From: Nemertoderma westbladi
Taxonomy: Eukaryota; Animalia; Xenacoelomorpha
Assembly: GCA_032718475.1 (NCBI GenBank)
Contig: JAUCBJ010005774.1
Location: 19,472-83,471, forward strand
DNA length: 64,000 nucleotides
Direction: 5' to 3'
In this document: positions 26,033 through 64,000 of the stretch, piece by piece
Position numbering within the stretch: position 1 is the first letter of the stretch
Layout: every line of letters begins with the position of its first letter
Notes under the pieces: model-generated
The model's input: only the letters and a program-made list of their open reading frames with translations
Databases searched by the model: none
What the model was told of the DNA's origin: nothing
Program-made: the position numbers and the translations under genes

Positions 26033-26086
<54 letters not shown>

Positions 26087-29000
26087 AATAAAAAACTCAT
26101 TCGTAAATAACTTTAGAAGATTTTAACCATCTTCAAACCAAATTTTGTATGTGCTGGGCATACTAGAGGAAAAGTTCCAATATTTTTTAAAGTTACGGGC
26201 AAATACCTATTGAAATTTTGACTCCAGATCAAATCGAACCTGTTTCGAACTTGCTCAAGTTCGCGTGCTGCGCGACGCCCCACGAACGTGTTATTTATTA
26301 GCTCTGATAAAGATTATGTGGAAACTTTTATAGCTTATGCTTTTGTATACATTTGGTGGTCAGACGTTATGGTCGTTAAATATAAAACGAGAGAATCACA
26401 AACTCGTAGACTTACCTTCGTCCTTGTCCCAGGCCTGTATCCTAGCAACCCATGTGTCTACCGGTTTGCTCTCCAGCACCCCGTGCGCGCCCTCTAGTAT
26501 TGGCGGGAAGCTGGGCGGCCAATCGTTGGCGTCACTCACCATCACCGTAACCCGGGAGCTGCACCGACGACCTCCGGTGTCCATGGCAACCGCAGTCAAT
26601 TCGTACAGATCCACGGTCTCCCTATCGAGCCGTGTTGCCGTGACAACCGTACCTAAGTGAAGGAAGTTTACAATCACACATTTATACATTCTAGCGAAAT
26701 TTATTCTAAAAATTAATAAAAATTTAACGAAAATGCCTGTCTGATCTCTTTGTTTCGTTTTGAAATATACGAAAGAAATTACATTATTAAACAATATAAT
26801 AGCCTCACCATTTTCCTTTCCGATGTCAAAATGATGCGCAAATTGTCCCTCCAATGAATAGCTGATTGCCGCATTATCTCCAACATCTCGGTCAGTGGCA
26901 GACAAATTAGCCACACCCAATCCAGGTGGCATATTCTCCGCCACCTCAGCAGTCACATATTGCTAGGAGACGAAACAAACAAATAATTACCTGTTAGATG
27001 CTCTAGTAACTAAATACGAAATGTTTACAAAAGGAGTTTGTATTCTTTGGAAACAGAAACTGGTAGAAAACAAGAAACCATTAACAACATCTGTGGCGCA
27101 GTGGCGGTTTAATATATGTGGTGTCATTTAATCTATGGGTCCTTTAGCCACACTTTTAGACGATAACTTTATTGAAATATTAAGATAATTACAACTACAG
27201 AGTTAAAGAAACACAAGTAAACACCAGTAAAAAAATGTAATAAACAAACAAATATAGAAATGAGAAGAGAAAAATAACATAGAGTTAACAGAAAAGCTAG
27301 AAATATAAACTGAAACTTATAGAAACTGAGGTTTATAAATAGCAATGCGAATATATTGTTTATTTTTAGTTAGAATAACACCCGAGGGATTCAAGGGTTA
27401 AAACACGTAGTTAACAAAAACATTGAAACAAAGACTAAATGATTTGTAAACAATAGAATGTAAATACCTGAGTGTACCAATCCAGAGATGGAAGCTTTAA
27501 TTAAAATTACAAAAGTTTGTTAGTTAATGTGATATTTACAGTCTCCGGTGATTTAATAATCATAGTTAAAATTGTAGATAAATTTCACACCCACTCATAT
27601 GTAGGAATCCGGCTAAATTACATCTTTCCTGCGCTTTAGGGAAACTCAATTATCAGAGTCTAACATTGATACTTACTTGATCACATACGGGAGAATTGTC
27701 ATTAACGTCAGTAATTTCCACGATTAGTGTTGCTATGGCAGCGAATCTACCATCAGTAACAACGATTTCCATATTGTAAACCTAAAAAAACACAGGAATA
27801 GTACAAAGGTGTAACGACAACATTTAATTAACTTAGAAATAAAACACTAAGAAGTGTTCTACCCTTGTACGTCTTTATTCCTGAATCTCCTTCACATACA
27901 ATACACTGACATTGACAGACTGGTTTTCTCTTAAAATCTGTGAATTCCACATCCAACTGCTTTCACTAACCTCTATCGATTCTCTATCCAACCGCTGGGT
28001 GGTGTACCTATACACTAACCTCCATTGATTATCTATCGAACCGCTGGGTGGTGTACCTATACACTAACCTCTATCGATTCTCTATCCAACCGCTGGGTGG
28101 TGTACCTATACACTAACCTCCATTGATTCTCTATCGAACCGCAGGGTGGTGTACCTATACACTAACTTCTATTGATTCTCTATCGAACCGCTGGGTGGTG
28201 TACCTATACACTAACCTCCATTGATTCTCTATCGAACCGCTGGGTGGTGTACCTATACACTAACCTCCATTGATTCTCTATCGAACCGCTGGGTGGTGTA
28301 CCTATACACTAACCTCCATTGATTCTCTATCCAACCGCTGGGTGGTGTACCTATATACTAACCTCCATTGATTATCTATCGAACCCCTGGGTGGTGTACC
28401 TATACACTAACCTCCATTGATTCCCTATCGAACCGCTGGGTGGTGTACCTATATACTAACTTCCATTGATTCTCGATCCAACCGCTGGGTGGTGTACCTA
28501 TACACTAACTTCCATTGATTATCTATCGAACCCCTGGGTGGTGTACCTATACACTAACCTCCATTGATTCCCTATCGAACCGCTGGGTGGTGTACCTATA
28601 TACTAACTTCCATTGATTCTCGATCCAACCGCTGGGTGGTGTACCTATACACTAACCTCCATTGATTCTCTATCGAACCGCTGGGTGGTGTACCTATACA
28701 CTAACTTCCATTGATTCTCTATCCAACCGCTTGGTGGTGTACCTATACACTAACCTCCATTGATTATCTATCCCACCACTGGGTGGTGTACACTAACCTC
28801 CATTGATTCCCTATCCAACCACTGGGTGGCACACTAAACACCATTGATACCTTATCCAACCGCTAGGTGGTGTACACTAACCTCCATTGATTCTCTATCC
28901 AACCGCTGGGTGGTGTACACTAACCTCCAATGATGCCCTGTCCAACCACTGGGTGGCACACTAAACACAATTGATTCCCTATCCAACCGCTAGGTGATGT

Positions 29001-32000
29001 ACACTAACCTCCATTGATTCTCTATCCAACCGCTGGGTGGTGTACACTTTCCCTGTTTCCGAATCAATATTAAAGTGGCCGCGAGTATCTGTACCCCCGA
29101 CGATATAATAACGTAATGTTTTGCTGGCCTCGGTATCTACAGCAACCATAGTATAAACAAACGTTCCTAAAATGGAAAATCCATTATTTAACGATTCATT
29201 AAATAATAATGGTTGATTTATGAACTCTTGTCAGTTTGAATTGTATGTTACCCTTATACAAGGATTTCTTAGGTTCGATACAAGTCAGTGCCATATGGTA
29301 GCACACTTATGTAGCACACATTGACCACAGACAGATAGACATACTGGAGCAATAATACATAACCCCCACCATCTGGGTAGCATATGCTCATCCCCCTGTT
29401 TTCATTTAGGGGTGCAGAAACACGGTCAACCGAATCAACACGACCAAAAGGCAACAAAAATAAATTCAATGTACAATCTGGTGACTCTATCATTGAAGCA
29501 TGAAGTCTTCCTAAACATTTTAGAACATACTTGTTTGTGAAACTTAATATGTATTAAAAACCGTTACAATATTTATCAAATAAACCGTAGAACTCACCGG
29601 GTAATTGGTCTTCAGTCACTTGGGTCCTATATGTTGCCTGACCGTCGCTAGACCTCCTCGTCCGCCCGTCACTAGGTAACGGGATGCTGTCGCTAGGGAA
29701 TGAAGGAGGCGAGTCGTTGCTATCCACTACGGACACGACCACAGTGGCGGTGGAGGTAAACCGTAATGACTCGCCCGTATCCGTGGCAACCACTAGTAAA
29801 TTAACTTCAGGAGAGACCTCATAGTCAAGTGGAGTGTCGAGGAAAACCCATCTGAGAGAGGAGATGAGATAAGTGTATACCGTGGAAAGTGTACAAGTAC
29901 ATGGGGAAAATGCGTGCAAGTGCAATAAGACGCTACCATAATGCCTCACCATTATTGCTTTATTATATTACCTGGTATCTACATACACTCCCTCCACCTA
30001 CTGCCTATTAATTATCACTTCGACCCCACCCAACCCATAGTGCTGTAAATTACAAATAATATTACAAGTAATACTCTCTTTCACCACTTTTATATGCTCT
30101 ATTTTTAGCTGTATTGTACTTATCGTTATGTATTGGTTGGTGATTCTCTCTCGGTCATCTTCCTCTAACTCACCCAGACACCGGATCCACAGTAAACCCG
30201 TTCCCTTCCTCCTCCAACTCACCCACTCACCGGATCCACAGTAAACCCGCTCCCTTCATCCTCCAACTCACCGGATCCACAGTAAACCCACTCCCTTCCT
30301 CCTCCAACTCACCGGATCCACAGTAAACCCGTTCCCTTCCTCCTCCAACTCACCCAATCACCGGATCCACAGTAAACCCGCTCCCTTTCTCCTCCAACTC
30401 ACCGGATCCACAGTAAACCCGTTCCCTTCCTCCTCCAACTCACCGGATCCACAGTAAACCCGTTCCCTTCCTCCTCCAACTCACCCAATCACCGGATCCA
30501 CAGTAAACCCGCTCCCTTCATCCTCCAACTCACCCAGTAACCGGATCCACAGTAAACCCGCTCCCTTCCTCCTCCAACTCACCGGATCCACAGTAAACCC
30601 GCTCCCTTCATCCTCCAACTCACCCAGTAACCGGATCCACAGTAAACCCGCTCCCTTCCTCCTCCAACTCACCGGATCCACAGTAAACCCGTTCCCTTCC
30701 TCCTCCAACTCACCCAATCACCGGATCCACAGTAAACCCGCTCCCTTCATCCTCCAACTCACCCAGTAACCGGATCCACAGTAAACCCGTTCCCTTCCTC
30801 CTCCAACTCACCCAATCACCGGATCCACAGTAAACCCGCTCCCTTTCTCCTCCAACTCACCCAGTAACCGGATCCACAGTAAACCCGTTCCCTTCCTCCT
30901 CCAACTCACCCAATCACCGGATCCACAGTAAACCCGCTCCCTTTCTCCTCCAACTCACCGGATCTACAGTAAACCCGCTCCCTTCCTCCTCCAACTCACC
31001 CAGTAACCGGATCCACAGTAAACCCGTTCCCTTCCTCCTCCAACTCACCCAATCACCGGATCCACAGTAAACCCGCTCCCTTTCTCCTCCAACTCACCCA
31101 GTAACCGGATCCACAGTAAACCCGTTCCCTTCCTCCTCCAACTCACCCAATCACCGGATCCACAGTAAACCCGCTCCCTTTCTCCTCCAACTCACCGGAT
31201 CTACAGTAAACCCGCTCCCTTCCTCCTCCAACTCACCCAGTAACCGGATCCACAGTAAACCCGTTCCCTTCCTCCTCCAACTCACCCAATCACCGGATCC
31301 ACAGTAAACCCGCTCGCTTTCTCCTCCAACTCACCGGATCCACAGTAAACCCGCTCCCTTCCTCCTCCAACTCACCCAATCACCGGATCCACAGTAAACC
31401 CGCTCCCTTCCTCCTCCAACTCACCTAGTCACCGGATCCACAGTAAACCCGTTCCCTTCCTCCTCCAACTCACCTAGTCACCGGATCCACAGTAAACCCG
31501 TTCCCTTCCTACTCCAACTCACCCAATCACCGGATCCACAGTAAACCCGCTCCCTTCCTCCTCCAACTCACCCAGTCACCGGATCCACAGTAAACCCGCT
31601 CCCTTCCTCCTCCAACACACCCAGTCTACGGATCCACAGTAAACCCGCTCCCTTCCTCCTCCAACACACCCAGTCAACGGATCCACAGTAAAGCCGCTCC
31701 CTTCCTCCTCCAACTCACCGGATCCACAGTAAACCCGCTCCCTTCCTCCTCCAACTCACCCAGTCACCGGATCCACAGTAAACCCGCTCCCTTCCTCCTC
31801 CAACTCACCCAGTCACCGGATCCACAGTAAACCCGCTCCCTTCCTCCTCCAACTCACCCAGTCACCGGATCCACAGTAAACCCGCTCCCTTCCTCCTGCA
31901 ACTCACCCAGTAAACGGATCCACAGTAAACCCGCTCCCTTCCTCCTCCAACTCACCCAGTAACCGGATCCACAGTAAACCCGCTCCCTTCCTCCTCCAAC

Positions 32001-35000
32001 TCACCCAGTAACCGGATCCACAGTAAACCCGCTCCCTTCCTCCTCCAACTCACCCAGTAACCGGATCCACAGTAAACCCGCTCCCTTCCTCCTGCAACTC
32101 ACCCAGTAAACGGATCCACAGTAAACCCGCTCCCTTCCTCCTCCAACTCACCCAGTAACCGGATCCACAGTAAACCCGCTCCCTTCCTCCTCCAACTCAC
32201 CCAGTAACCGGATCCACAGTAAACCCGCTCCCTTCCTCCTCCAACTCACCCAGTAACCGGATCCACAGTAAACCCGCTCCCTTCCTCCTCCAACTCACCC
32301 AGTCACCGGATCCACAGTAAACCCGCTCCCTTCCTCCTCCAACTCACCCAGTAACCGGATCCACAGTAAACCCGCTCCCTTCCTCCTCCAACTTACCCAG
32401 TCACCGGATCCACAGTAAACCCGCTCCCTTCCTCCTCCAACTCACCCAGTAACCGGATCCACAGTAAACCCGCTCCCTTCCTCCTCCAACTTACCCAGTC
32501 ACCGGATCCACAGTAAACCCGCTCCCTTCCTCCTCCAACTCACCCAGTAACCGGATCCACAGTAAACCCGCTCCCTTCCTCCTCCAACTCACCCAGTAAC
32601 CGGATCCACAGTAAACCCGCTCCCTTACTCCTCCAACTCACCGGATCCACAGTAAACCCGCTCCCTTCCTCCTCCAACTCACCGGATCCACAGTAAACCC
32701 GCTCCCTTCCTCCTCCAACTCACCCAGTAACCGGATCCACAGTAAACCCGCTCCCTTCCTCCTCCAACTCACCCAGTAACCGGATCCACAGTAAACCCGC
32801 TCCCTTCCTCCTCCAACTTACCCAGTCACCGGATCCACAGTAAACCCGCTCCCTTCCTCCTCCAACTCACCCAGTAACCGGATCCACAGTAAACCCGCTC
32901 CCTTCCTCCTCGAACTTACCCAGTCACCGGATCTACAGTAAACCCGCTCCCTTCCTCCTCCAACTCACCCAGTAACCGGATCCACAGTAAACCCGCTCCC
33001 TTCCTCCTCCAACTCACCCAGTAACCGGATCCACAGTAAACCCGCTCCCTTACTCCTCCAACTCACCGGATCCACAGTAAACCCGCTCCCTTCATCCTCC
33101 AACTTACCCAGTCACCGGATCCACAGTAAACCCGCTCCTCCCTTCCTCCTCCAACTCACCCAGTAACCGGATCCACAGTAAACCCGCTCCCTTCCTCCTC
33201 CAACTCACCGAGTCACCGGATCCACAGTAAACCCGCTCCCTTAATCCTCCAACTTACCCAGTCACCAGATCCACAGTAAACCCGCTCCCTTCCTCCTCCA
33301 ACTCACCCAGTAACCGGATCCACAGTAAACCCGCTCCCTTCCTCCTCCAACTCACCCAGTAACCGGATCCACAGTAAACCCGCTCCCTTCCTCCTCCAAC
33401 TTACCCAGTCACCGGATCCACAGTAAACCCGCTCCCTTCCTCCTCCAACTCACCCAGTAACCGGATCCACAGTAAACCCGCTCCCTTCCTCCTCCAACTT
33501 ACCCAGTCACCGGATCCACAGTAAACCCGCTCCCTTCCTCCTCCAACTCACACAGTAACCGGATCCACAGTAAACCCGCTCCCTTCCTCCTCCAACTCAC
33601 CCAGTAACCGGATCCACAGTAAACCCGCTCCCTTACTCCTCCAACTCACCGGATCCACAGTAAACCCGCTCCCTTCATCCTCCAACTTACCCAGTCACCG
33701 GATCCACAGTAAACCCGCTCCCTTCCTCCTCCAACTCACCCAGTAACCGGATCCACAGTAAACCCGCTCCCTTCCTCCTCCAACTCACCGAGTCACCGGA
33801 TCCACAGTAAACCCGCTCCCTTCCTCCTCCAACACACCGGATCCACACTAAACCCGCTCCCTTCCTCCTCCAACACACCCACCCAGTCACCGGATCCACA
33901 GTAAACCCGCTCCCTTTCTCCTCTAACTCACCGGATCCACAGTAAACCCGCTCCCTTCCTCCTCCAACTCACCCAGTCACCGGATCCACAGTAAACCCGT
34001 TCCCTTCCTCCTCCAACTCACCCTGTCACCGGATCCACATTAAACCCACTCCCTTCCTCGTCCAACTCACCCTGTCACCGGATCCACAGTAAACCCGCTC
34101 CCTTCCTCCTCCAACTCACCCGGTCACCGGATCCACAGTAAACCCGCTCCCTTCATCCTCCAACTCACCGGATCCACAGTAAACCCGCTCCCTTCCTCCT
34201 CCAACTCACCCAGTAACCGGATCCACAGTAAACCCGCTCCCTTCCTCCTCCAACTTACCCAGTCACCGGATCCACATTAAACCCACTCCCTTCCTCGTCC
34301 AACTCACCCTGTCACCGGATCCACAGTAAACCCGCTCCCTTCCTCCTCCAACTCACCCGGTCACCGGATCCACAGTAAACCCGCTCCCTTCATCCTCCAA
34401 CTCACCGGATCCACAGTAAACCCGCTCCCTTCCTCCTCCAACTTACCCAGTCACCGGATCCACATTAAACCCACTCCCTTCCTCGTCCAACTCACCCTGT
34501 CACCGGATCCACAGTAAACCCGCTCCCTTCCTCCTCCAACTCACCCGGTCACCGGATCCACAGTAAACCCGCTCCCTTCATCCTCCAACTCACCGGATCC
34601 ACAGTAAACCCGCTCCCTTCCTCCTCCAACTCACCCAGTCACCGGATCCACAGTAAACCCGTTCCCTTCCTCCTCCAACTCACCCTGTCACCGGATCCAC
34701 ATTAAACCCACTCCCTTCCTCGTCCAACTCACCCTGTCACCGGATCCACAGTAAACCCGCTCCCTTCCTCCTCCAACTCACCCGGTCACCGGATCCACAG
34801 TAAACCCGCTCCCTTCATCCTCCAACTCACCGGATCCACAGTAAACCCGCTCCCTTCCTCCTCCAACTCACCCAGTAACCGGATCCACAGTAAACCCGCT
34901 CCCTTCCTCCTCCAACTCACCCAGTAACCGGATCCACAGTAAACCCGCTCCCTTCCTCCTCCAACTCACCCAGTCATCGGATCCACAGTAAACCCACTCC

Positions 35001-38000
35001 CTTCATCCTCCAACTCACCGGATCCACAGTAAACCCGCTCCCTTCCTCCTCCAACACACCCAGTGACCGGATCCACAGTAAACCCGCTCCCTTTCTCCTC
35101 CAACACACCGGATCCACAGTAAACCCGCTCCCTTCCTCCTCCAACTCACCCAATCACCGGATCCACAGTAAACCCGCTCCCTTCCTCCTCCAACTCACCC
35201 AGTAACCGGATCCACAGTAAACCCGCTCCCTTCCTCCTCCAACTCACCGAGTCACCGGATCCACAGTAAACCCGCTCCTTTCCTCCTCCAACACACCCAG
35301 TCACCGGATACACAGTAAACCCACTCCCTTCCTCCTCCAACTCACCGGATCCACAGTAAACCCGCTCCCTTCCTCCTCCAACTCACCCAATCATCGGATC
35401 CACAGTAAACCCGCTCCCTTCATCCTCCAACTCACCGGATCCACAGTAAACCCGCTCCCTTCATCCTCCAACTCACCTAGTCACCGGATCCACAGTAAAC
35501 CCGCTCCCTTCATCCACCAACTCACCCAGTCACCGGATCCACAGTAAACCCGCTCCCTTCCTCCTCCAACTCACCTAGTCACCGGATCCACAGTAAACCC
35601 GCTCCCTTCCTCCTCCAACTCACCCAGTCACCGGATCCACAGTAAACCCGCTCCCTTCCTCCTCCAACTCACCTAGTCACCGGATCCACAGTAAACCCGC
35701 TCCCTTCCTCCTCCAACTCACCGGATCCACAGTAAACCCGCTCCCTTCCTCCTCCAACTCACCCAGTCACCGGATCCACAGTAAACCCGCTCCCTTCCTC
35801 CTCCAACTCACCTAGTCACCGGATCCACAGTAAACCCGCTCCCTTCCTCCTCCAACTCACCCAGTCACCGGATCCACAGTAAACCCGCTCCCTTCCTCCT
35901 CCAACTCACCGGATCCACAGTAAACCCGCTCCCTTCCTCCTCCAACTCACCTAGTCACCGGATCCACAGTAAACCCGCTCCCTTCCTCCTCCAACTCACC
36001 TAGTCACCGGATCCACAGTAAACCCGCTCCCTTCCTCCTCCAACTCACCGGATCCACAGTAAACCCGCTCCCTTCCTCCTCCAACTCACCCAGTCACCGG
36101 ATCCACTGTAAACCCGCTCCCTTCCTCCTCCAACTCACCGGATCCACAGTAAACCCGCTCCCTTCCTCCTCCAACTCACCTAGTCACCGGATCCACAGTA
36201 AACCCGCTCCCTTCCTCCTCCAACTCACCTAGTCACCGGATCCACAGTAAACCCGCTCCCTTCCTCCTCCAACTCACCGGATCCACAGTAAACCCGCTCC
36301 CTTCCTCCTCCAACTCACCTAGTCACCGGATCCACAGTAAACCCGCTCCCTTCCTCCTCCAACTCACCTAGTCACCGGATCCACAGTAAACCCGCTCCCT
36401 TCCTCCTCCAACTCACCCTGTCACCGGATCCACAGTAAACACGCTCCCTTCCTCCTCCAACTCACCGAGTCACCGGATCCACAGTAAACCCGCTCCCTTC
36501 CTCCTCCAACACACCCAGTGACCGGATCCACAGTAAACCCGCTCCCTTCCTCCTCCAACTCACCCAGTGACCGGATCCACAGTAAACCCGCTCCCTTCCT
36601 CCTCCAACTCACCCTGTCACCGGATCCACAGTAAACACGCTCCCTTCCTCCTCCAACTCACCGAGTCACCGGATCCACAGTAAACCCGCTCCCTTCCTCC
36701 TCCAACTCACACAATCACCGGATCCACAGTAAACCCGCTCCCTTCCTCCTCCAACTCACCCTGTCACCGGATCCACAGTAAACACGCTCCCTTCCTCCTC
36801 CAACTCACCGAGTCACCGGATCCACAGTAAACCCGCTCCCTTCCTCCTCCAACACACCCAGTGACCGGATCCACAGTAAACCCGCTCCCTTCCTCCTCCA
36901 ACTCACCCTGTCACCGGATCCACAGTAAACACGCTCCCTTCCTCCTCCAACTCACCGAGTCACCGGATCCACAGTAAACCCGCTCCCTTCCTCCTCCAAC
37001 ACACCCAGTGACCGGATCCACAGTAAACCCACTCCCTTACTCCTCCAACTCACCGGATCCACAGTAAACCCGCTCCCTTCCTCCTCCAACTCACCCAGTC
37101 ACCGGATCCACAGTAAACCCGCTCCCTTCCTCCTCCAACTCACCCAGTCACCGGATCCACAGTAAACCCGCTCCCTTCCTCCTCCAACTCACCGGATCCA
37201 CAGTAAACCCGCTCCCTTCCTCCTCCAACTCACCTAGTCACCGGATCCACAGTAAACCCGCTCCCTTCCTCCTGCAACTCACCCAGTCACCGGATCCACA
37301 GTAAACCCGCTCCCTTCCTCCTCCAACTCACCCAGTAACCGGATCCACAGTAAACCCGCTCCCTTCCTCCTCCAACTCACCGGATCCACAGTAAACCCGC
37401 TCCCTTCCTCCTCCAACTCACCTAGTCACCGGATCCACAGTAAACCCGCTCCCTTCCTCCTGCAACTCACCCAGTCACCGGATCCACAGTAAACCCGCTC
37501 CCTTCCTCCTCCAACTCACCCAGCAACCGGATCCACAGTAAACCCGCTCCCTTCCTCCTCCAACTCACCGGATCCACAGTAAACCCGCTCCCTTCCTCCT
37601 CCAACTCACCTAGTCACCGGATCCACAGTAAACCCGCTCCCTTCCTCCTGCAACTCACCCAGTCACCGGATCCACAGTAAACCCGCTCCCTTCCTCCTCC
37701 AACTCACCGGATCCACAGTAAACCCGCTCCCTTCCTCCTCCAACTCACCCAGTCACCGGATCCACAGTAAACCCGCTCCCTTCCTCCTCCACTGCGTAGA
37801 CGACTTTTCCGTTCCGACCCCCATCCGCGTCCGTTGCTCGCACCCGGACCACCGGATCCCCCGGACGAGCGTTCTCCGACGCCACCACGCGGTACGTTAA
37901 CGAATCGAATCGCGGAGGATTGTCGTTGACATCGATGACACCGATTCCCACTGTTGTATAGACAACCATAGGTGGACTGGTTGCTGTCTCGGCCTACAAA

Positions 38001-41000
38001 AAAGCGATAGATCCTATAATTGATAGCTGAAATAATATTTTATTGTAAGTGACTCTGTAAGGAGGCCTTATAGAACATCGTCCAGACCCGGTCCGAAATC
38101 CTCCATTATAGCTAATCCATCAACTCTTCACCAAATTTAATGACTACAATTAATTAATTTAAAATAAACATTATATACAAATGGTGTGCTATAAAATATA
38201 AATATAAGTACAATATATATAATAAATTATTATAAAAATATTACAGCAAAACAAAGTCAATCACATTATCATATTCGCAGTGCGGTCCCCTCAGAATTAT
38301 ACTCCCCAGAGGAAACTCCAGTACCCATTTAGCTACCATTTAAGTATGCGAGGCAGATATGCGACCTTATCGCTAGTTCCTTTAAAGCATTTGTGTCGAA
38401 AGTAAAACTACACTGGGATCACAACCCACTTCAGGGGTCGAACCCACGACCTCCAACGCAAAGGATTTAACGACTACACCAAGGTGGGACTAAAAAATAA
38501 TTTTAATTATGAATATTACCTTAACGGTGAGTGAGTGGGTGGTTTTGGCTTCGTAGTCAAACGGACCAGCTACGAGAATGGTCCCGTCTAGAGGGTCGAT
38601 AACGAAAGGAGAAACCGGGTCACTAGGACACGGGACTATCGAGTAGCCAATAGCATCCGTCGTACGATTCATAGCGGTTACCTTACCAACCTGGAATATT
38701 TGAGTTAATTTAAACTTTAGTAACTTAATAAATGAACAGTTTATTCCACTTTTCACTTTATTTCCGTATTGTTTTTATCTTCTCGTACCTGTAGTGTACG
38801 ATTTATCAGGTCTAACGACAATACATTTGAGGTTCCGAAATGTTTTTAATATAATTTTAAAGGATTAAATAAATAAGTGTTGATTAATATATTTATTCAA
38901 TTTTTGTGTTGAAATGTGAAAGGCGTTATTGAACCATGGCTGTGGCACTGTTTGGGCCTCTTCAGTAGCGCTAACTCGTTCAAGCTGACTCAGTTCCACA
39001 AGATAATAGTCCCCCGTTGCTAATTATTTAGTATGTTGCATTTCCTCCTATCTATCTCTAACTAAAAGCCGACCTACTGATCTTAGTCAAGAAAAAACTT
39101 CGATATTATGGGGCGAGCCACGAGGTAAGGGAACCTTAGCATACAGTTTATTACGGGTCAAATCAAGCCGGCCTGTCTGCCTGTCCGTCAGTCAGTTTGT
39201 CTATCCGTATGTTTAACTGGTATGCCTGTAGGTGTGGTATACCGAAAGTTTAGCTCATTCTAGTAGTAACTATAATACATTCCACTGTATCACTGACCTC
39301 CGTGTCTATAGGAACTGTTTCCTCCAATGAGAATTCGTAGTGATCCGATTCAAAGGAAGGCGGGGCATCCTCATTGGATATCATAATAATCTCCAAGGCG
39401 ACATCAGCAGAACGAGGAGGAGTTCCTTTGTCGGTGGCGCGGATGAACAGTTGGAACACATGGGTTGCTAGGCAACAATAACAACAATAGTACTTTTAAC
39501 AAGGAAATTGAATTATATTTTGATTACGAATAGGGACATCAAAAACTAAACATTGGAGGTAAATAAAATGTAGCTCGATATATAAATATATATATATATA
39601 CAAAATCTCTAAAATAAACACAATTACTTTTCAACTTACTGTCGACATTTATAGGAGTCAGAATGGATATAATTCCGGTAGTTGGTTGGATGGTGAACAT
39701 CTGTTTCAACGGACTCGAATCCTTCTCATATATTGAGTAACTAAGCAACCCATTGTCGCCAGCGTCTGAGTCACTTGCCCGCACCTTCAAATTAATATTA
39801 CTTTGTATTAGTTAATTCATATTAATATGAATTCGCAGATGTTGACAAGTTAACTTTTACAAAACCTTCTTAACATCTTAGTTATGGTTTTAAAATGGGG
39901 GTGAGAGAGGGGGGGGGGGGGGGGGGGGGGTAACCAGTGTTTAAAATGAACCATTGAGTGAAGAAGCAGGTTGATGGCAGTCTTACAAACCAAAACAATA
40001 AACCAATTTCCAATTCTGTTGCGATTAATTCTCCCCCCCCTTATATTTTTAAGACAAATAGGTCCTATGGGAAAATGATAAAATGGAAGGTTGTAGGAAT
40101 TCCTGGTACTGCAGTACATTTACCATAGTGTCCCTCTCACCTGCAGCACTTTATCACCTACAGATGCGTTCACGGCCACATTAACGGTGTATTCGGTAAC
40201 ATCCCACACCGGAGCATTATCATTCTCATCCGTTACCAATAGAGTGACCGTAGTAAACCCAACCAAGCCTCCCCCATCGGTAACCGTTACAGGTATACTA
40301 ATGTTACGTTGAGTAACATTCTCCCTATCCAACATATCCAACGTCCACAATTCCCCTGAAACAAAAATTAACTAATTTGTTAAAAAATTATAGAAATTTA
40401 AATACATTTTATAAAATGTATAAGACGTCCAAGTACCAATTAGTAATAAACAGTAACAATCCAATACTACTACTACTAGGATCGGCATGCTGCATTGCAG
40501 CTGCATTTTTAAGAATGCTGTGCCGGCTTGTCAACAAAATTGCACCGCCACAACTCCCTATCACCCATGACATTTGCTAGATCATCCGCATCTTCAAGGC
40601 CAGTGTCCTTTAAGATGCGTCTCAAGAAAGTCATGGGCTGTCCACCATGCTTATTCACTCCATGAGGCTGCCAAAGTACAAGATTATGCACTGGCTGGTC
40701 CTCACGGCGAAAGCAATGTCCTGCAAAGCGGAGGCGATTTTGTTCTAGTGTCAAGCTTGGGGGAACCAATGAGACACCTCCAATGTTATATAGTGTCTGG
40801 TTGGAGATGTGTGCATTGTACTTGACACAATGAACCCGGCGTAGCATTCTTGTGAATGTGCCATCCAGAGATTGGGTGTCAACAATCCAATGGGAGGCGG
40901 TTTAATATTAATATAGTTCAAAGGTAGGCTATACAGTAAGGTTACAGTATACAACACAGCATTTGTACTATTCTATTTTTAATTTCGCAAATAAATAATA

Positions 41001-44000
41001 TTATATAGAAGCTATAACACCTACTCCTATTAGGTATTATTATAAACTAACCTGATTTAGGATCTATAGCAAACATAGACAAGGATGAGTCACTTGGTAT
41101 GGTGTAGGTCAGCTCACCATACAGCCCTGGGTCGGGGTCATTGGCCGACACACTGACTACCAGACTGCGGACAGGGGAATTCTCACTCAGTTCGGACACG
41201 TAGGGTGGTGGTGGGATGGAGGGGGCGTGGCTAATGGGAAAAATATTATAAAGAAATTAACAAAGAATTAATCGCCATTACCAATCAGTAAACATTTGCA
41301 AACAACCACCACAAGACATGGAAAAAAGTAAGTATAAAACACCTAAGAAATTAACATGTAATTAAAGTGTAACATGTTTTAAATAGTTGTTTTACAGGTT
41401 TCATTAGCCAATTAAAAAATTATTTAATTATTTCTGACTGTTAATAATAATTCGAACTAGCGGGAGCAATTAGCATGTACCATTAAATAATATCCGCACA
41501 GTGGCGCTGTTTATTTACTAAGATATTAATTATTGGCCTGTACCATTAAAATCCGCACAGTGGCGCTGTTTATACACTATCCTTTTCACTTGTACCATTA
41601 GTATCCGCACAGTGGCGCTGTTTATACACTATCCTTTGCACTTGTACCCTTAGTATCCGCACAGTGGCGCTGTTTATACACTATCATTTTCACTTGTACC
41701 ATTAGTATCCGCCCAGTGGCGCTGTTTATACACTATCCTTTTCACTTGTACCATTAGTATCCGCACAGTGGCGCTGTTTATACACTATCCTTTTCACTTG
41801 TACCATTAGTATCCGCCCAGTGGCGCTGTTTATACACTATCCTTTTCACTTGTACCATTAGTATCCGCACAGTGGCGCTGTTTATACACTATCCTTTTCA
41901 CTTGTACCATTAGTATCCGCCCAGTGGCGCTGTTTATACACTATCCTTTTCACTTGTACCATTAGTATCCGCCCAGTGGCGCTGTTTATACACTATCCTT
42001 TTCACTTATACCATTAGTATCCGCACAGTGGCGCTGTTTATACACTATCCTTTTCACTTGTACCATTAGTATCCGCCCAGTGGCGCTGTTTATACACTAT
42101 CCTTTTCACTTGTACCATTAGTATCCGCACAGTGGCGCTGTTTATACACTATCCTTTTCACTTGTACCATTAGTATCCGCCCAGTGGCGCTGTTTATACA
42201 CTATCCTTTTCACTTGTACCCTTAGTATCCGCACAGTGGCGCTGTTTATACACTATCCTTTTCACTTGTACCATTAGTATCCGCACAGTGGCGCTGTTTA
42301 TACACTATCCTTTTCACTTGTACCATTAGTATCCGCACAGTGGCGCTGTTTATACACTATCCTTTTCACTTGTACCATTAGTATCCGCCCAGTGGCGCTG
42401 TTTATACACTATCCTTTTCACTTGTACCCTTAGTATCCGCACAGTGGCGCTGTTTATACACTATCCTTTTCACTTGTACCATTAGTATCCGCACAGTGGC
42501 GCTGTTTATACACTATCCTTTTCACTTGTACCATTAGTATCCGCACAGTGGCGCTGTTTATACACTATCCTTTTCACTTGTACCATTAGTATCCGCACAG
42601 TGGCGCTGTTTATACACTATCCTTTTCACTTGTACCATTAGTATCCGCCCAGTGGCGCTGTTTATACACTATCCTTTTCACTTATACCATTAGTATCCGC
42701 ACAGTGGCGCTGTTTATACACTATCCTTTTCACTTGTACCATTAGTATCCGCCCAGTGGCGCTGTTTATACACTATCCTTTTCACTTGTACCATTAGTAT
42801 CCGCACAGTGGCGCTGTTTATACACTATCCTTTTCACTTGTACCATTAGTATCCGCCCAGTGGCGCTGTTTATACACTATCCTTTTCACTTGTACCATTA
42901 GTATCCGCACAGTGGCGCTGTTTATACACTATCCTTTTCACTTGTACCATTAGTATCCGCACAGTGGCGCTGTTTATACACTATCCTTTTCACTTGTACC
43001 ATTAGTATCCGCACAGTGGCGCTGTTTATACACTATCCTTTTCACTTGTACCATTAGTATCCGCACAGTGGCGCTGTTTATACATTCTCCTTTTCACTTG
43101 TACCATTAGTATCCGCACAGTGGCGCTGTTTATACACTACCCTTTTCACTTGTACCATTAGTATCCGCACAGTGGCGCTGTTTATACATTCTCCTTTTCA
43201 CTTGTACCCTTAGTATCCGCACAGTGGCGCTGTTTATACACTACCCTTTTCACTTGTACCATTAGTATCCGCACAGTGGCGCTGTTTATACACTATCCTT
43301 TTCACTTGTACCATTAGTATCCGCACAGTGGCGCTGTTTATACACTATCCTTTTCACTTGTACCATTAGTATCCGCACAGTGGCGCTGTTTATACATTCT
43401 CCTTTTCACTTGTACCCTTAGTATCCGCACAGTGGCGCTGTTTATACACTACCCTTTTCACTTGTACCATTAGTATCCGCACAGTGGCGCTGTTTATACA
43501 CTATCCTTTTCACTTGTACCATTAGTATCCGCCCAGTGGCGCTGTTTATACACTATCCTTTTCACTTATACCATTAGTATCCGCACAGTGGCGCTGTTTA
43601 TACACTATCCTTTTCACTTGTACCATTAGTATCCGCCCAGTGGCGCTGTTTATACACTATCCTTTTCACTTGTACCATTAGTATCCGCACAGTGGCGCTG
43701 TTTATACACTATCCTTTTCACTTGTACCATTAGTATCCGCCCAGTGGCGCTGTTTATACACTATCCTTTTCACTTGTACCATTAGTATCCGCACAGTGGC
43801 GCTGTTTATACACTATCCTTTTCACTTGTACCATTAGTATCCGCACAGTGGCGCTGTTTATACACTATCCTTTTCACTTGTACCATTAGTATCCGCACAG
43901 TGGCGCTGTTTATACACTATCCTTTTCACTTGTACCATTAGTATCCGCACAGTGGCGCTGTTTATACATTCTCCTTTTCACTTGTACCATTAGTATCCGC

Positions 44001-47000: not shown

Positions 47001-50000
47001 ACCATTAGTATCCGCACAGTGGCGCTGTTTATACACTATCCTTTTCACTTGTACCATTAGTATCCGCACAGTGGCGCTGTTTATACACTATCCTTTTCAC
47101 TTGTACCATTAGTATCCGCCCAGTGGCGCTGTTTATACACTATCCTTTTCACTTGTACCATTAGTATCCGCACAGTGGCGCTGTTTATACACTATCCTTT
47201 TCACTTGTACCATTAGTATCCGCCCAGTGGCGCTGTTTATACACTATCCTTTTCACTTGTACCATTAGTATCCGCCCAGTGGCGCTGTTTATACACTATC
47301 CTTTTCACTTGTACCATCAGTATCCGCACAGTGGCGCTGTTTATACACTATCCTTTTCACTTGTACCCTTAGTATCCGCACAGTGGCGCTGTTTATACAC
47401 TATCCTTTTCACTTGTACCCTTAGTATCCGCACAGTGGCGCTGTTTATACACTATCCTTTTCACTTGTACCATTAGTATCCGCACAGTGGCGCTGTTTAT
47501 ACACTATCCTTTTCACTTGTACCCTTAGTATCCGCACAGTGGCGCTGTTTATACACTACCCTTTTCACTTGTACCATTAGTATCCGCACAGTGGCGCTGT
47601 TTATACACTACCCTTTTCACTTATACCATTAGTATCCGCACAGTGGCGCTGTTTATACACTATCCTTTTCACTTGTACCCTTAGTATCCGCACAGTGGCG
47701 CTGTTTATACACTACCCTTTTCACTTGTACCATTAGTATCCGCACAGTGGCGCTGTTTATACACTACCCTTTTCACTTATACCATTAGTATCCGCACAGT
47801 GGCGCTGTTTATACACTATCCTTTTCACTTGTACCATTAGTATCCGCACAGTGGCGCTGTTTATACACTATCCTTTTCACTTGTACCATTAGTATCCGCA
47901 CAGTGGCGCTGTTTATACATTCTCCTTTTCACTTGTACCATTAGTATCCGCACAGTGGCGCTGTTTATACACTATCCTTTTCACTTGTACCATTAGTATC
48001 CGCACAGTGGCGCTGTTTATACACTATCCTTTTCACTTGTACCATTAGTATCCGCACAGTGGCGCTGTTTATACACTATCCTTTTCACTTGTACCATTAG
48101 TATCCGCACAGTGGCGCTGTTTATACATTCTCCTTTTCACTTGTACCATTAGTATCCGCACAGTGGCGCTGTTTATACACTACCCTTTTCACTTGTACCA
48201 TTAGTATCCGCACAGTGGCGCTGTTTATACATTCTCCTTTTCACTTGTACCATTAGTATCCGCACAGTGGCGCTGTTTATACACTACCCTTTTCACTTGT
48301 ACCATTAGTATCCGCACAGTGGCGCTGTTTATACACTATCCTTTTCACTTGTACCATTAGTATCCGCACAGTGGCGCTGTTTATACACTATCCTTTTCAC
48401 TTGTACCCTTAGTATCCGCACAGTGGCGCTGTTTATACACTACCCTTTTCACTTGTACCATTAGTATCCGCACAGTGGCGCTGTTTATACACTATCCTTT
48501 TCACTTGTACCATTAGTATCCGCACAGTGGCGCTGTTTATACACTATCCTTTTCACTTGTACCATTAGTATCCGCACAGTGGCGCTGTTTATACATTCTC
48601 CTTTTCACTTGTACCCTTAGTATCCGCACAGTGGCGCTGTTTATACACTACCCTTTTCACTTGTACCATTAGTATCCGCACAGTGGCGCTGTTTATACAC
48701 TATCCTTTTCACTTGTACCATTAGTATCCGCACAGTGGCGCTGTTTATACACTATCCTTTTCACTTGTACCCTTAGTATCCGCACAGTGGCGCTGTTTAT
48801 ACACTACCCTTTTCACTTGTACCATTAGTATCCGCACAGTGGCGCTGTTTATACACTATCCTTTTCACTTGTACCATTAGTATCCGCACAGTGGCGCTGT
48901 TTATACACTATCCTTTTCACTTGTACCATTAGTATCCGCACAGTGGCGCTGTTTATACATTCTCCTTTTCACTTGTACCCTTAGTATCCGCACAGTGGCG
49001 CTGTTTATACACTACCCTTTTCACTTGTACCATTAGTATCCGCACAGTGGCGCTGTTTATACACTATCCTTTTCACTTGTACCATTAGTATCCGCCCAGT
49101 GGCGCTGTTTATACACTATCCTTTTCACTTATACCATTAGTATCCGCACAGTGGCGCTGTTTATACACTATCCTTTTCACTTGTACCATTAGTATCCGCC
49201 CAGTGGCGCTGTTTATACACTATCCTTTTCACTTGTACCATTAGTATCCGCACAGTGGCGCTGTTTATACACTATCCTTTTCACTTGTACCATTAGTATC
49301 CGCCCAGTGGCGCTGTTTATACACTATCCTTTTCACTTGTACCATTAGTATCCGCACAGTGGCGCTGTTTATACACTATCCTTTTCACTTGTACCATTAG
49401 TATCCGCACAGTGGCGCTGTTTATACACTATCCTTTTCACTTGTACCATTAGTATCCGCACAGTGGCGCTGTTTATACACTATCCTTTTCACTTGTACCA
49501 TTAGTATCCGCACAGTGGCGCTGTTTATACATTCTCCTTTTCACTTGTACCATTAGTATCCGCACAGTGGCGCTGTTTATACACTACCCTTTTCACTTGT
49601 ACCATTAGTATCCGCACAGTGGCGCTGTTTATACACTATCCTTTTCACTTGTACCCTTAGTATCCGCACAGTGGCGCTGTTTATACACTATCCTTTTCAC
49701 TTGTACCATTAGTATCCGCACAGTGGCGCTGTTTATACACTATCCTTTTCACTTGTACCATTAGTATCCGCACAGTGGCGCTGTTTATACATTCTCCTTT
49801 TCACTTGTACCATTAGTATCCGCACAGTGGCGCTGTTTATACACTATCCTTTTCACTTGTACCATTAGTATCCGCACAGTGGCGCTGTTTATACACTATC
49901 CTTTTCACTTGTACCATTAGTATCCGCACAGTGGCGCTGTTTATACACTACCCTTTTCACTTGTACCATTAGTATCCGCACAGTGGCGCTGTTTATACAT

Positions 50001-52385: not shown

Positions 52386-52389
<4 letters not shown>

Positions 52390-52420
<31 letters not shown>
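52390..52420. repeat. (GA)n microsatellite
   Basis: Directly visible. Confidence 0.9.
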
Positions 52421-52421
<1 letters not shown>

Positions 52422-56053: not shown

Positions 56054-56507
56054 GTTAAATAAATTTGTTTGTCCTATTGAATTTGAACTCAACAAAATAT
56101 GGATGACAAACTACGTACCGGTATGCCCTACGTCATTATGTTTATAGAACAGGGTCCTGTAGGCAATCCTAACTCAGTATTTACGCACGTTAGCGGTACA
56201 TCCGGTAAAACCTGATCACCAATTACTTTCATTTTCAAGGAAATCCGTTTGTAAGACCACAGTGCCGGTATGTCTAACAGTATCTTAACTATACTTACCA
56301 CTAAGCAGCCGTCGCTATACCGAAAATAGTAATATACCGTCTTAACAATCAATTACAATCAAACATAACCCTACAGTAATGATATCCGTTTGAAGGAACA
56401 GAGTCTATCATATCATTAAAAATTTCAATTTTCGACTAAAATTTAGTTTTCTAAAGAGTTTTCTATAAACAAATAACTATAATAAGAAACATGTTTTCAT
56501 ATTTTAG

Positions 56508-57761: not shown

Positions 57762-58210
57762 ATAAATGTAGGTTGTTATAGGCGTGTTTGTTGAATGTTA
57801 ACCAATTAATTTCACGTAGAAAAGGTAAAACGTTAGTCAGCTTTGTTAGTTATTTGTTTTAGTTAATTAGATCTACCTGTGTGTAAGGAACAAAACGAAA
57901 AATCCATGTAGTAGACCAGTACTACCGTTCAGTACTACAAATTCCACATAAATTAAGATATATTTTATTCGAATATCTATATATATTCACCTACTTTTCT
58001 GTTATACATTTACGATATGTTTTTACCATCTCAGGTTTTACCATAAATATGATTTTCTACTAAAACATTGAATGTGAAAATGGTAGATTTTCAGTAATTT
58101 ATATGTATCTATTATATTGATAAAGAAATATAAAGTTCATGATGTGAGAACAAAGTCAGATGCAATTAATAATAATTCTACAAGCTATATTCTATAAGCT
58201 ATAATACTAG

Positions 58211-58989: not shown

Positions 58990-59410
58990 TTTCGTGGAAT
59001 CTCGTTAATCTCGATTGCGGCAAAACTATACAACATAATTCTATTAAAACGCATCTGGAATCCTGCTGAGAGACTGTAAAGATCGTGGAACCATGGAGCC
59101 TATTCTGGCACATAGAAGGATAATCTAAGAGTTATCAATGAAGAAAGACAGACATCTGACTGTTATCTTTGTTGACTTCTTTAAAGCCTTCGACTAAGTC
59201 TCCCGACAACGTATGTTCAGCATACCGGCAGCATATGGGATTCCTGAGGAAATTATTGCAGCTATCAGATCACTGCGCGATGGTTCCACCACATTTGTGT
59301 CTACTGGTGATGGTGACACAACCATACGAAGTCTTATGGGGGGGTCCTTCAGGGTGATGCACCATTGTACTGGTGCATTGGTGACTTGCACCATTCATAT
59401 TCGTAATTGT
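58990..59410 (+). pseudogene. Degraded RTE-like reverse transcriptase fragment
   Basis: Broken frames give HILAHRRII*, IFVDF-KAFD*VSR, AYGIPEEIIAAIRSL and GVLQGD, with stops and frameshifts. Confidence 0.7.
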
Positions 59411-62400
59411 CCGACTGTAAACTACCTTATAGGCAATACGAACGCCCCATTGTCCGACTGTAACCTACCTTATAGACAATACGAATGCCCCATTGTCCGA
59501 CTGCAACCTACCTTATAGACAATACGAACGCCCCATTGTCCGACTGTAACCTACCTTATAGCCAATACGAACGCCCCATTGTCCGACTGTAACCTACCTT
59601 ATAGACAATACGAACGCCTCATTGTCCGACTGTAACCTACCTTATAGGCAATACGAATGCCCCATTGTCCGACTGTAACCTACCTTATAGACAATACGAA
59701 TGCCCCATTGTCCGACTGTAACCTACCTTATAGACAATACGAACGCCTCATTGTCCGACTGTAACCTACCTTATAGACAATACGAACGCCCCATTGTCCG
59801 ACTGTAACCTACCTTATAGACAATACGAACGCCCCATTGTCCGACTGTAACCTACCTTATAGACAATACGAATGCCCCATTGTCCGACTGTAACCTACCT
59901 TATAGACAATACGAACGCCCCATTGTCCGACTGTAACCTACCTTATAGACAATACGAACGCACCATTGTCCGACTGTAACCTACCTTATAGACAATACGA
60001 ACGCCCCATTGTCCGACTGTAACCTACCTTATAGACAATACGAACGCCCCATTGTCCGACTGTAACCTACCTTATAGACAATACGAATGCCCCATTGTCC
60101 GACTGTAACCTACCTTATAGACAATACGAACGCCCCATTGTCCGACTACAACCTACCTTATAGACAATACGAACGCCTCATTGTCCGACTGTAACCTACC
60201 TTATAGACAATACGAACGCCCCATTGTCCGACTACAACCTACCTTATAGACAATACGAACGCCTCATTGTCCGACTGTACCCTACCTTATAGACAATACG
60301 AACGCCCCATTGTCCGACTGTAATCTACCTTATAGACAATACGAACGCCCCATTGTCCGACTGTAACCTACCTTATAGACAATACGAACGCCCCATTGTC
60401 CGACTGTAACCTACCTTATAGACAATACGAATGCCCCATTGTCCGACTGTAACCTACCTTATAGACAATACGAACGCCCCATTGTCCGACTGTAACCTAC
60501 CTTATAGACAATACGAATGCCCCATTGTCCGACTGTAACCTATCTTATAGACAATACGAACGCCCCATTGTCCGACTGTAACCTACCTTATAGACAATAC
60601 GAACGCCTCATTGTCCGACTGTAACCTACCTTATAGACAATACGAACGCCCCATTGTCCGACTACAACCTACCTTATAGACAATACGAACGCCTCATTGT
60701 CCGACTGTAACCTACCTTATAGACAATACGAACGCCCCATTGTCCGACTGTAACCTACCTTATAGACAATACGAACGCCCCATTGTCCGACTGTAACCTA
60801 CCTTATAGACAATACGAACGCCCCATTGTCCGACTGTAACCTACCTTATAGACAATACGAACGCCCCATTGTCCGACTGTAACCTACCTTATAGACAATA
60901 CGAACGCCCCATTGTCCGACTGTAACCTACCTTATAGACAATACGAACGCCCCATTGTCCGACTGTAACCTACCTTATAGACAATACGAACGCCCCATTG
61001 TCCGACTGTAACCTACCTTATAGACAATACGAACGCCCCATTGTCCGACTGTAACCTACCTTATAGACAATACGAACGCCCCATTGTCCGACTGTAACCT
61101 ACCTTATAGACAATACGAACGCCCCATTGTCCGACTGTAACCTACCTTATAGACAATACGAACGCCCCATTGTCCGACTGTAACCTACCTTATAGACAAT
61201 ACGAACGCCCCATTGTCCGACTGTAACCTACCTTATAGACAATACGAACGCCCCATTGTCCGACTACAACCTTCCTTATAGACAATACGAATGCCCCATT
61301 GTCCGACTGTAACCTACCTTATAGACAATACGAACGCCCCATTGTCCGACTACAACCTACCTTATAGACAATACGAACGCCTCATTGTCCGACTGTAACC
61401 TACCTTATAGACAATACGAACGCCCCATTGTCCGACTACAACCTACCTTATAGACAATACGAACGCCTCATTGTCCGACTGTAACCTACCTTATAGACAA
61501 TACGAACGCCCCATTGTCCGACTACAACCTACCTTATAGACAATACGAACGCCCCATTGTCCGACTGTAACCTACCTTATAGACAATACGAACGCCCCAT
61601 TGTCCGACTGTAACCTACCTTATAGACAATACGAACGCCCCATTGTCCGACTACAACCTACCTTATAGGCAATACGAACGCCCCATTGTCCGACTGTAAC
61701 CTATCTTATAGACAATACGAACGCCCCATTGTCCGACTGTAACCTACCTTATAGACAATACGAACGCCCCATTGTCCGACTACAACCTACCTTATAGACA
61801 ATACGAACGCCTCATTGTCCGACTGTAACCTACCTTATAGACAATACGAACGCCTCATTGTCCGACTGTAACCTACCTTATAGACAATACGAACGCCCCA
61901 TTGTCCGACTACAACCTACCTTATAGACAATACGAACGCCCCATTGTCCGACTACAACCTACCTTATAGACAATACGAACGCCTCATTGTCCGACTGTAA
62001 CCTACCTTATAGACAATACGAACGCCCCATTGTCCGACTACAACCTACCTTATAGACAATACGAACGCCCCATTGTCCGACTACAACCTACCTTATAGAC
62101 AATACGAACGCCCCATTGTCCGACTACAACCTACCTTATAGACAATACGAACGCCTCATTGTCCGACTGTAACCTACCTTATAGACAATACGAACGCCCC
62201 ATTGTCCGACTACAACCTACCTTATAGACAATACGAACGCCTCATTGTCCGACTGTAACCTACCTTATAGACAATACGAACGCCCCATTGTCCGACTACA
62301 ACCTACCTTATAGACAATACGAACGCCCCATTGTCCGACTACAACCTACCTTATAGACAATACGAACGCCCCATTGTCCGACTACAACCTACCTTATAGA

Positions 62401-64000
62401 CAATACGAACGCCTCATTGTCCGACTGTAACCTACCTTATAGACAATACGAACGCCTCATTGTCCGACTGTAACCTACCTTATAGACAATACGAACGCCC
62501 CATTGTCCGACTACAACCTACCTTATAGACAATACGAACGCCCCATTGTCCGACTACAACCTACCTTATAGACAATACGAACGCCTCATTGTCCGACTGT
62601 AACCTACCTTATAGACAATACGAACGCCCCATTGTCCGACTGTAACCTACCTTATAGACAATACGAACGCCTCATTGTCCGACTGTAACCTACCTTATAG
62701 ACAATACGAACGCCCCATTGTCCGACTACAACCTACCTTATAGACAATACGAACGCCCCATTGTCCGACTACAACCTACCTTATAGACAATACGAACGCC
62801 TCATTGTCCGACTGTAACCTACCTTATAGACAATACGAACGCCCCATTGTCCGACTACAACCTACCTTATAGACAATACGAACGCCCCATTGTCCGACTA
62901 CAACCTACCTTATAGACAATACGAACGCCCCATTGTCCGACTACAACCTACCTTATAGACAATACGAACGCCCCATTGTCCGACTACAACCTACCTTATA
63001 GACAATACGAACGCCCCATTGTCCGACTACAACCTACCTTATAGACAATACGAACGCCTCATTGTCCGACTGTAACCTACCTTATAGACAATACGAACGC
63101 CCCATTGTCCGACTACAACCTACCTTATAGACAATACGAACGCCCCATTGTCCGACTACAACCTACCTTATAGACAATACGAACGCCCCATTGTCCGACT
63201 GTAACCTACCTTATAGACAATACGAATGCCCCATTGTCCGACTGTAACCTACCTTATAGACAATACGAACGCCTCATTGTCCGACTGTAACCTACCTTAT
63301 AGACAATACGAACGCCCCATTGTCCGACTACAACCTACCTTATAGACAATACGAACGCCCCATTGTCCGACTGTAACCTACCTTATAGACAATACGAATG
63401 CCCCATTGTCCGACTGTAACCTACCTTATAGACAATACGAACGCCCCATTGTCCGACTACAACCTACCTTATAGACAATACGAACGCCTCATTGTCCGAC
63501 TACAACCTACCTTATAGACAATACGAACGCCCCATTGTCCGACTGTAACCTACCTTATAGACAATACGAATGCCCCATTGTCCGACTGTAACCTACCTTA
63601 TAGACAATACGAACGCCTCATTGTCCGACTGTAACCTACCTTATAGACAATACGAACGCCCCATTGTCCGACTGTAACCTACCTTATAGACAATACGAAC
63701 GCCTCATTGTCCGTCTGTAACCTACCTTATAGACAATACGAACGCCCCATTGTCCGACTACAACCTACCTTATAGCCAATACGAACGCCCCATTGTCCGA
63801 CTGTAAACTACCTTATAGACAATACGAACGCCCCATTGTCCGACTGTAACCTACCTTATAGCCAATACGAATGCCCCATTGTCCGACTGTAACCTACCTT
63901 ATAGCCAATACGAATGCCCCATTGTCCGACTGTAACCTACCTTATAGCCAATACGAATGCCCCATTGTCCGACTGTAACCTACCTTATAGCCAATACGAA
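59407..64000 (-). repeat. 43-bp tandem array containing an AAG|GTAGGT donor; truncated by window end
   Basis: Unit acgaacgccccattgtccgactgtaacctaccttatagacaat, more than 100 copies. Confidence 0.97.

Follow-up and report, generated by a model that had tools for sequence, protein, structure and literature searches.

Four large tandem arrays, designated A1 to A4, are associated with the 5' splice sites of a single predicted cadherin gene of Nemertoderma westbladi, in a window (the whole stretch of DNA that was analysed) of 64,000 nucleotides. They belong to a repeat type that has already been described, of which they form an uncommonly dense and large case. Distinctive features of this locus are the presence of four arrays in one gene, their size, the layout in which all of them lie at donors and consist mostly of exon sequence, and the decay of one array. 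The arrays are probably four independent neutral minisatellites of the kind known as "mirages", seeded at exon ends, tolerated through use of the first donor, and shaped by ordinary turnover.

The host gene was modelled on the minus strand, and when the first donor of every intron is used, its 22 exons in the window give 1,738 codons with zero stops. The predicted product is 33% identical to the insect proteins P0041 and P0056, colinear across 1,460-1,740 residues, and its cadherin repeats are followed by laminin-G-like and EGF-like parts. Pfam returned a Cadherin match, which includes exon 7, and a weak, sub-threshold EGF match; the laminin-G-like exon, tested in the same way, had zero matches. 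From this domain order, compared with the architecture of the family, we take the gene to be Fat-like. Searches of protein collections did not find a close relative, the best identities being 40% and 39%. A nested peptidase reaches 36-38% identity to Branchiostoma. An orthologous exon was sought in run X7, from another organism, and was not found, and the non-cadherin exon 19 used as a query gave zero matches. When exon 7 was compared with metagenomes, a single cadherin match of 23 residues appeared, which was not counted as an orthologue. Run X5, guessed to be RNA of another organism, covered dispersed repeats only and zero model exons.

Table 1. Positions in the window of the predicted gene, its model acceptors, the donor arrays with their source exons, and an exonic minisatellite.
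Feature	Position	Strand	Description
Predicted Fat-like cadherin gene	3628..51838	-	22 GT-AG exons in the window; extends past both ends
Model acceptors, exons 1-11	51838, 41230, 40355, 39784, 39467, 38690, 37993, 29851, 29166, 27781, 26962	-	
Model acceptors, exons 12-22	26652, 22043, 21174, 10844, 9397, 8803, 8088, 6690, 5509, 4689, 3923	-	
Exon 9	29009..29166	-	Source of A1: last 36-39 nt + 4-7 intron nt; donor GAG/GTTAGT at 29009/29008
Array A1	27964..29047	-	~23 units of 43, 41 and 49 bp
Exon 7	37749..37993	-	Source of A2: last 41 nt + 8 intron nt; donor TGG/GTGAGT at 37749/37748
Array A2	30161..37791	-	161 units including the exon copy: 124 of 49 bp, 34 of 41 bp
Exon 1	51617..51838	-	Source of A3: last 40 nt + 12 intron nt; donor TAG/GTTAGT at 51617/51616
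Array A3	41480..51656	-	196 units including the exon copy, 193 of 52 bp
Array A4	59406..64000	-	107 copies of a 43-bp unit within the window; continues past its end
27-bp minisatellite	10469..10595	-	4.7 copies, in frame, wholly in exon 15; insertion relative to P0041

The arrays were located by Tandem Repeats Finder, at 27964-29045, 30161-37791, 41539-51657 and 59406-64000, and then split into units (Table 1); the spans given by this program add up to 23,427 bp. A first-pass annotation had described three arrays at donors of one gene, with units of 43/49, 49/41 and 52 bp, a further array of 43 bp, and more than 23 kb in total. Both the arrangement and the dimensions were confirmed: A1, A2 and A3 start 36-41 nt within the 3' ends of exons 9, 7 and 1 and then span the donor. 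A1 was resolved into 21 anchored pieces, 2 of which are doublets. From the intron, A1, A2 and A3 take in 4-12 nt. In all four units the intron contributes 16-26% of the length, so that they are exon-heavy (p about 0.004-0.012, calculated after the fact). The splice signal is widely retained downstream. In A1 the donor 9-mer recurs as 15 exact and 5 near matches, and the GT is kept in 16/16 of the 49-mers; in A2 the GT is intact in 157/157 downstream copies (123/123 and 34/34 of the two unit lengths), with the 9-mer of the true donor copied exactly 69 times; and in A4 it is intact in 103/106.

Copies of exon ends and exon starts were sought in the 400 nt adjoining 22 donors and 22 acceptors and compared with 200 shuffles. 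Strong exon-end copies were found at the donors of A1, A2 and A3 alone (scores 80, 86 and 39; 0/200 shuffles), and the donor at 4449 showed a marginal one (score 20; 2/200 shuffles). In the same 400 nt, no exon-start copy lay beside any acceptor (0/22), and none of the remaining 19 donors had a nascent duplicate. The unit sequences are unrelated in 5/6 pairwise tests; the earlier claim of unrelated arrays requires one exception, A1 and A3, which share 12/13 nt around the donor (p=0.007, in part owing to a common donor hexamer).

Among the arrays whose exons lie in the window, 85%, 96% and 98% of the intron is array; what is left at the distal side is 180-310 nt of unique sequence, in which each intron has its own acceptor. 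The description of the arrays as dominating their introns is thus accurate for these three; A4, to which it had also been applied, may not dominate its intron, since it occupies at least 4.6 kb of a length of at least 12.2 kb.

The unit of A4 consists of about 32 exon-like and 11 intron-like nucleotides. Its putative donor, the best-scoring of 5 GT positions in the unit, joins the first exon in the window in the required phase, and the joined sequence would reproduce the residue spacing of P0041 before the D-x-D motif, the residues G, F and V also matching in position. Phase and motif therefore suggest that A4 is a fourth donor array of this gene. The first-pass annotation had given it the same design as the others, which agrees with the phase and with the cadherin-strand spacing; the putative source exon would lie outside the window.

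Public DNA runs of the same organism, X1 (sample S1, possibly the source sample) and X2 (S2, another sample), were compared with the arrays. At the edges of A2 and A3, summed contig depth in X1 reached 2,256 and 1,127, respectively, against about 12-19 in unique DNA, and in X2 459 and 214 against about 22-26, contig depth being no copy number. In both S1 and S2 the unique contig ends at 37762, 30 nt inside A2. Units of A4 occurred in 3/4 runs, where contig depth reached 1,314 (X1), 512 (X2) and 127 (X3); the fourth run, X6, yielded no match at this place, which does not prove absence, and no loose contig end leading into the A4 exon was found at the A4 edge in the public runs. A2, A3 and A4 units are therefore multi-copy in two independent samples. 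An origin of the arrays, in whole or for the greater part of their length, as artefacts of assembly would be compatible with the lower unit depth relative to flanks in S2 than in S1 (again contig depth, not copy number), with the lack of any piece spanning a whole array, and with X1 possibly being the source. Mis-assembly of one unit, however, would be unlike the 53, 21 and 20 distinct unit variants arranged in ordered blocks, and S2 also has multiple copies of the A2, A3 and A4 units. An artefact is very unlikely, units of A2, A3 and A4 being far deeper than the flanking unique DNA in both samples.

With a scoring matrix built from the 22 model donors and a cut-off of 6 bits, A1 was found to contain 37 donor-like sites, A2 220 and A4 104, compared with 58 elsewhere in 31 kb of DNA outside exons; the density is 23-35 per kb in these three arrays and 1.9 per kb elsewhere. 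Many A2 copies outscore the true donor (12.3 vs 8.0 bits). Translation past the first donor meets an in-frame stop after 27 nt in A1, 1 nt in A2, 61 nt in A3 and one codon in A4, and all strong later donors lie behind such a stop, the lone exception being a weak A1 site at +21. Use of any strong later donor would thus give a truncated message. Normal splicing is likely undisturbed, as judged from the reading frame. One proposal of the first-pass annotation was a selective filter, by which a duplication across a donor is silent if the first donor is used; this fits, since only the first donors keep the frame, and use of the first donor has been demonstrated experimentally in human F7 (PMC1557585).

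In favour of a bank of alternative donors for isoforms, about a third of the downstream donor-like sites (12/37 in A1, 70/220 in A2) are in frame by distance; but the frame is kept by the first donors only and the strong sites stand behind stops, which argues against an isoform bank. A place for the arrays among the intermediates of intron gain through tandem duplication would be compatible with the A4 unit, whose intron part in most copies has GT at its start and AG at its end; but each intron has a unique distal part and its own acceptor, indicating that the arrays sit in introns that already existed. Taken together, these two options are highly improbable. The density of donor-like sites in A1, A2 and A4 and the intact GT of A2 could also point to landing pads for U1 snRNP, acting against premature polyadenylation, or to tuning of the mRNA through decay. 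Against this, 21/49 columns of A2 are invariant, so that an invariant GT is expected about 1 time in 5 and is no sign of selection, and A4 has lost its GT in 3/106 copies. The largest array, A3, has no donor at all; the arrays make up 85-98% of their own introns and leave little else to protect; and no donor array accompanies the 10.1-kb intron that follows exon 14. Such a function is improbable, and the corresponding suggestion of the first-pass annotation, a function or a donor bank, was not supported.

The state of A3 provides further information. The donor GT has been lost in 192/192 downstream full copies, and no site in the array reaches 6 bits; the earlier definition of the unit as exon end plus 5' splice site therefore applies to A1, A2 and A4 and fails here. 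With the exon copy, the downstream copies share 69-75% identity (39/52 positions for the consensus), and with their own consensus 98.5%. Differences from the exon fall at 6/13 third codon positions, 3/27 first or second codon positions and 4/12 intron positions, the pattern expected where an array drifts freely next to an exon under constraint. The order of variants contains repeated multi-unit blocks, and the copies at the distal edge are divergent and carry exon-like letters. These blocks and edges match the concerted evolution with excluded boundary copies that is described for mirages (PMC3087553). A gradient of exon likeness was found neither along A2 (p=0.08) nor along A3 (p=0.85). From its sequence, A3 appears to be old and to have grown or homogenised after loss of its donors, and an array that expanded to 10 kb in this condition argues against function.

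Whether such an arrangement would arise by chance was evaluated with the arrays collapsed (36,403 bp), wholly coding placements removed, and the donors of nested genes left out. A random unit spans a donor with a probability of 2-7%. In this window, which was chosen for the feature and assessed after the fact, 3/7 arrays span a donor where 0.26 are expected (p=0.0015), and 4/8 when A4 is counted (p=1e-4); the local excess over the uniform null is 12- to 14-fold. The window is rich in arrays generally, as shown by further non-coding arrays at 1-2100, 10856-11129, 12304-12910 and 13001-14278 and two short coding arrays. A transposon contains two of the comparison arrays. The in-frame minisatellite of exon 15 (Table 1) indicates that exon DNA also seeds arrays here. 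The splice filter alone does not yield the local donor excess. GC content is 56% in exons and 35% in introns, 43-57% in the four donor arrays and 27-35% in the four other non-coding arrays; a higher rate of birth or growth in GC-rich exon DNA, combined with the filter, could produce the pattern without any aiming at donors, and GC seeding is assumed here to be the cause of the excess.

The excess would be compatible with a mutational process that targets the 3' ends of exons or the 5' splice sites, through polymerase pausing, R-loops, or U1-coupled or RNA-templated repair, a version of which the first-pass annotation had proposed. Such a process would also agree with 4 donor arrays and 0 acceptor arrays, with units that all end 7-12 nt into the intron, and with the G-richness of all four donor arrays on the sense strand, the A2 seed having the top G skew of the 22 donors. 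The 4:0 ratio, however, is not significant (two-sided p=0.125), and it was for this feature that the window had been selected out of a very large scan. In G content and G skew the three seeded exon ends do not clearly exceed the other 19 (p=0.08-0.10), the 19 other donors lack a nascent duplicate, and an acceptor-side mirage has been published in BflGb6 (PMC3087553). This process is an unlikely, though not negligible, explanation. A related and broader proposal, in which a lineage-wide mutational bias at exon 3' ends or donors spawns exon-heavy duplications and is a main driver of intron length, is also rather unlikely. If it were true, mirages would be the product of a genome-wide, donor-polarised mutational process, which in this gene would have placed an array at about 1 donor in 6 and added 23 kb.

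For the preferred interpretation, neutral minisatellites seeded at exon ends, the following course may be envisaged. A short tandem duplication would be born in a GC-rich exon end, in two cases perhaps at a few bases of junction homology. The observed homology is slight, amounting to 4 nt in A1 and being gapped in A2 and unclear in A3; it does not exceed the 3-8 nt that other donors show by chance, and it does not separate seeded from unseeded donors. Where the duplication reached past the donor, the extra copy would fall in the intron; the spliceosome would keep the first, most upstream donor, leaving the mRNA unchanged, and rare use of a later donor would lead to a stop and a message that is likely degraded. 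Duplications wholly within an exon would survive only if in frame and would remain short. A tolerated array could then grow and homogenise by multi-unit slippage or unequal exchange, independent of the exon, and could lose its donors, as A3 may have done. Among the observations counted against this interpretation, the units are exon-heavy, unlike the intron-heavy unit of F7, and many A2 copies outscore the true donor, while pseudo-sites are used in CBS and 6-16 (PMC1557585).

The value of this gene lies in its possible use for tests, since it offers arrays of different ages, from intact to fully decayed. Within the 7.6 kb of A2 there are as many as 160 decoy donors, many of them stronger than the real donor, and such arrays could test the selection of the first donor at copy numbers well above the 5-25 that have been examined in human genes. 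A donor excess that was seen across the genome and persisted under GC-matched controls would indicate a mutational process linked to splice sites that inflates introns. A genome-wide test of donor enrichment was not found in the part of the literature covered by the search, and the accessible portions of PMC10078293 and PMC2812944 contain no test of donor against acceptor enrichment. UPF3A, considered as a further human parallel, was set aside, as the search gave no literature on it.

The first-pass annotation knew of no named class for these elements, which was mistaken: lancelet mirages (PMC3087553, PMC3902484) and five human donor cases (PMC1557585) had been described. A third related system is intron gain by tandem duplication of an AG/GT site, the Rogers model (summarised in PMC3087553; boundary repeats in PMC2812944). 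It has in common with the present arrays the tandem duplication of sequence containing a splice signal, but here the two splice sites of an intron do not both derive from duplicated sequence and no new intron is formed, the arrays standing at the start of introns with their own unique acceptor region.

Human donor-spanning VNTRs include F7 IVS7 (37 bp, 5-9 copies), CBS IVS13 (15-20), the interferon-inducible, IFI6-type gene 6-16 (25 pseudo-sites), LMNB2 (100 bp, 10-15 copies) and PDGF (81 bp, 16-18 copies) (Borensztajn et al. 2006, PMC1557585). Experiments on F7 showed that the most upstream of identical tandem donors wins, and in CBS and 6-16 the next two pseudo-sites are also used (PMC1557585). 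As in the F7/CBS type, the first monomer spans the exon-intron boundary and the donor is reiterated downstream; a first monomer with the authentic donor followed by identical pseudo-donors was found in A1 and A2 and not in A3. The most upstream site gives the normal product in that type and, by the reading frame, would do so here. The present arrays differ in having about 10 times more copies, in being four in one gene, in including one donor-less array, and in units that are mostly exon, whereas the F7 unit comprises 4 nt of exon and 33 nt of intron (PMC1557585).

A similar geometry is found in the lancelet minisatellites named "mirages" by Canestro et al. 2002 (cited via PMC3087553 and PMC3902484), which occur in Adh3, troponin C, the globins BflGb6 and BflGb9, and PGBD5. 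In the available text of Ebner et al. 2010 (PMC3087553) and of PMC3902484, they span boundaries on both sides of introns, occur several per gene, are silent in splicing and are unstable in length; in PGBD5, two neighbouring exons each have an array at the 5' splice site (PMC3902484). Published units measure 10-160 bp (10-72 bp in Adh3), with 2-7 copies in the globins and PGBD5 (PMC3087553, PMC3902484). The arrays of N. westbladi share with them units that span a boundary (seen directly in A1-A3 and suggested by phase and motif in A4), overlapping unit sizes (41-52 bp here), concerted evolution, more than one array per gene, and a splice signal in many but not all copies. They differ in having 23-196 copies and lengths of up to 10 kb, as against the 2-7 copies of the globins and PGBD5, in the occurrence of four arrays within a single gene, each of them at a donor, in a host that is no lancelet, and in that normal splicing is here deduced from the reading frame.

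The consensus units of A1 and A3, two of the large tandem arrays that span donor sites of the Fat-like cadherin gene, are identical at 12 of 13 nt directly beyond the donor position (p=0.007, 300 shuffles; six comparisons were made). Five nt of this shared stretch are missing from the intron start of A3 itself. The likeness may reflect chance, or exchange between the arrays.

In A4 (59406-64000), the array whose presumed source exon lies outside the window, both common variants of the unit have an intron part that opens with GT and closes with CAG or TAG. Thus, each unit looks in its sequence like a 32-nt exon flanked by splice-like signals; it has no pyrimidine tract. The intron behind A4 contains a pair of ORFs resembling paralogues for cysteine-rich secreted proteins, one of them carrying an 18-bp in-frame repeat at 56556-56709.

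On the acceptor side, a 23-bp array was found near exon 15. Of its unit, 10 nt match the pyrimidine tract and 5 nt match the beginning of exon 15, so that, judged from these matches, a decayed acceptor-side repeat could be its origin. The search for an exon-start copy in the 400 nt adjoining this acceptor was negative for the array.

Features located in the cadherin introns
Feature	Window position	Strand	Remarks
23-bp array	10856-11129		stops 12 nt short of exon 15 acceptor
Non-autonomous element	12059-15304		36-nt terminal inverted repeats
MULE/FLYWCH transposase ORF	16473-18026	-	517 codons, intron 14
Class-V aminotransferase gene	19056-20375	+	intronless, nested antisense
Glutamate carboxypeptidase II-like M28 peptidase gene	23517-25898	+	intronless, nested antisense
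Two small two-exon ORFs	53400-57800	+	intron behind A4

A fragment of a very high-copy dispersed repeat occupies 40455-40880 of intron 2; in a contig from S2, one of two independent DNA samples of the same organism, the fragment is absent and 40454 is joined to 40881, indicating an insertion polymorphism. The non-autonomous element contains both an 85-bp and a 39-bp array; the long ORFs in the latter represent repeat read-through. In the last intron, a long inverted duplication was spotted by eye at 2400-2960, with arms at about 2580-2780 and 2880-3100.

A retrogene origin is possible for the nested aminotransferase and M28 peptidase genes, the latter of which shows a 38% match to hemichordate proteins.
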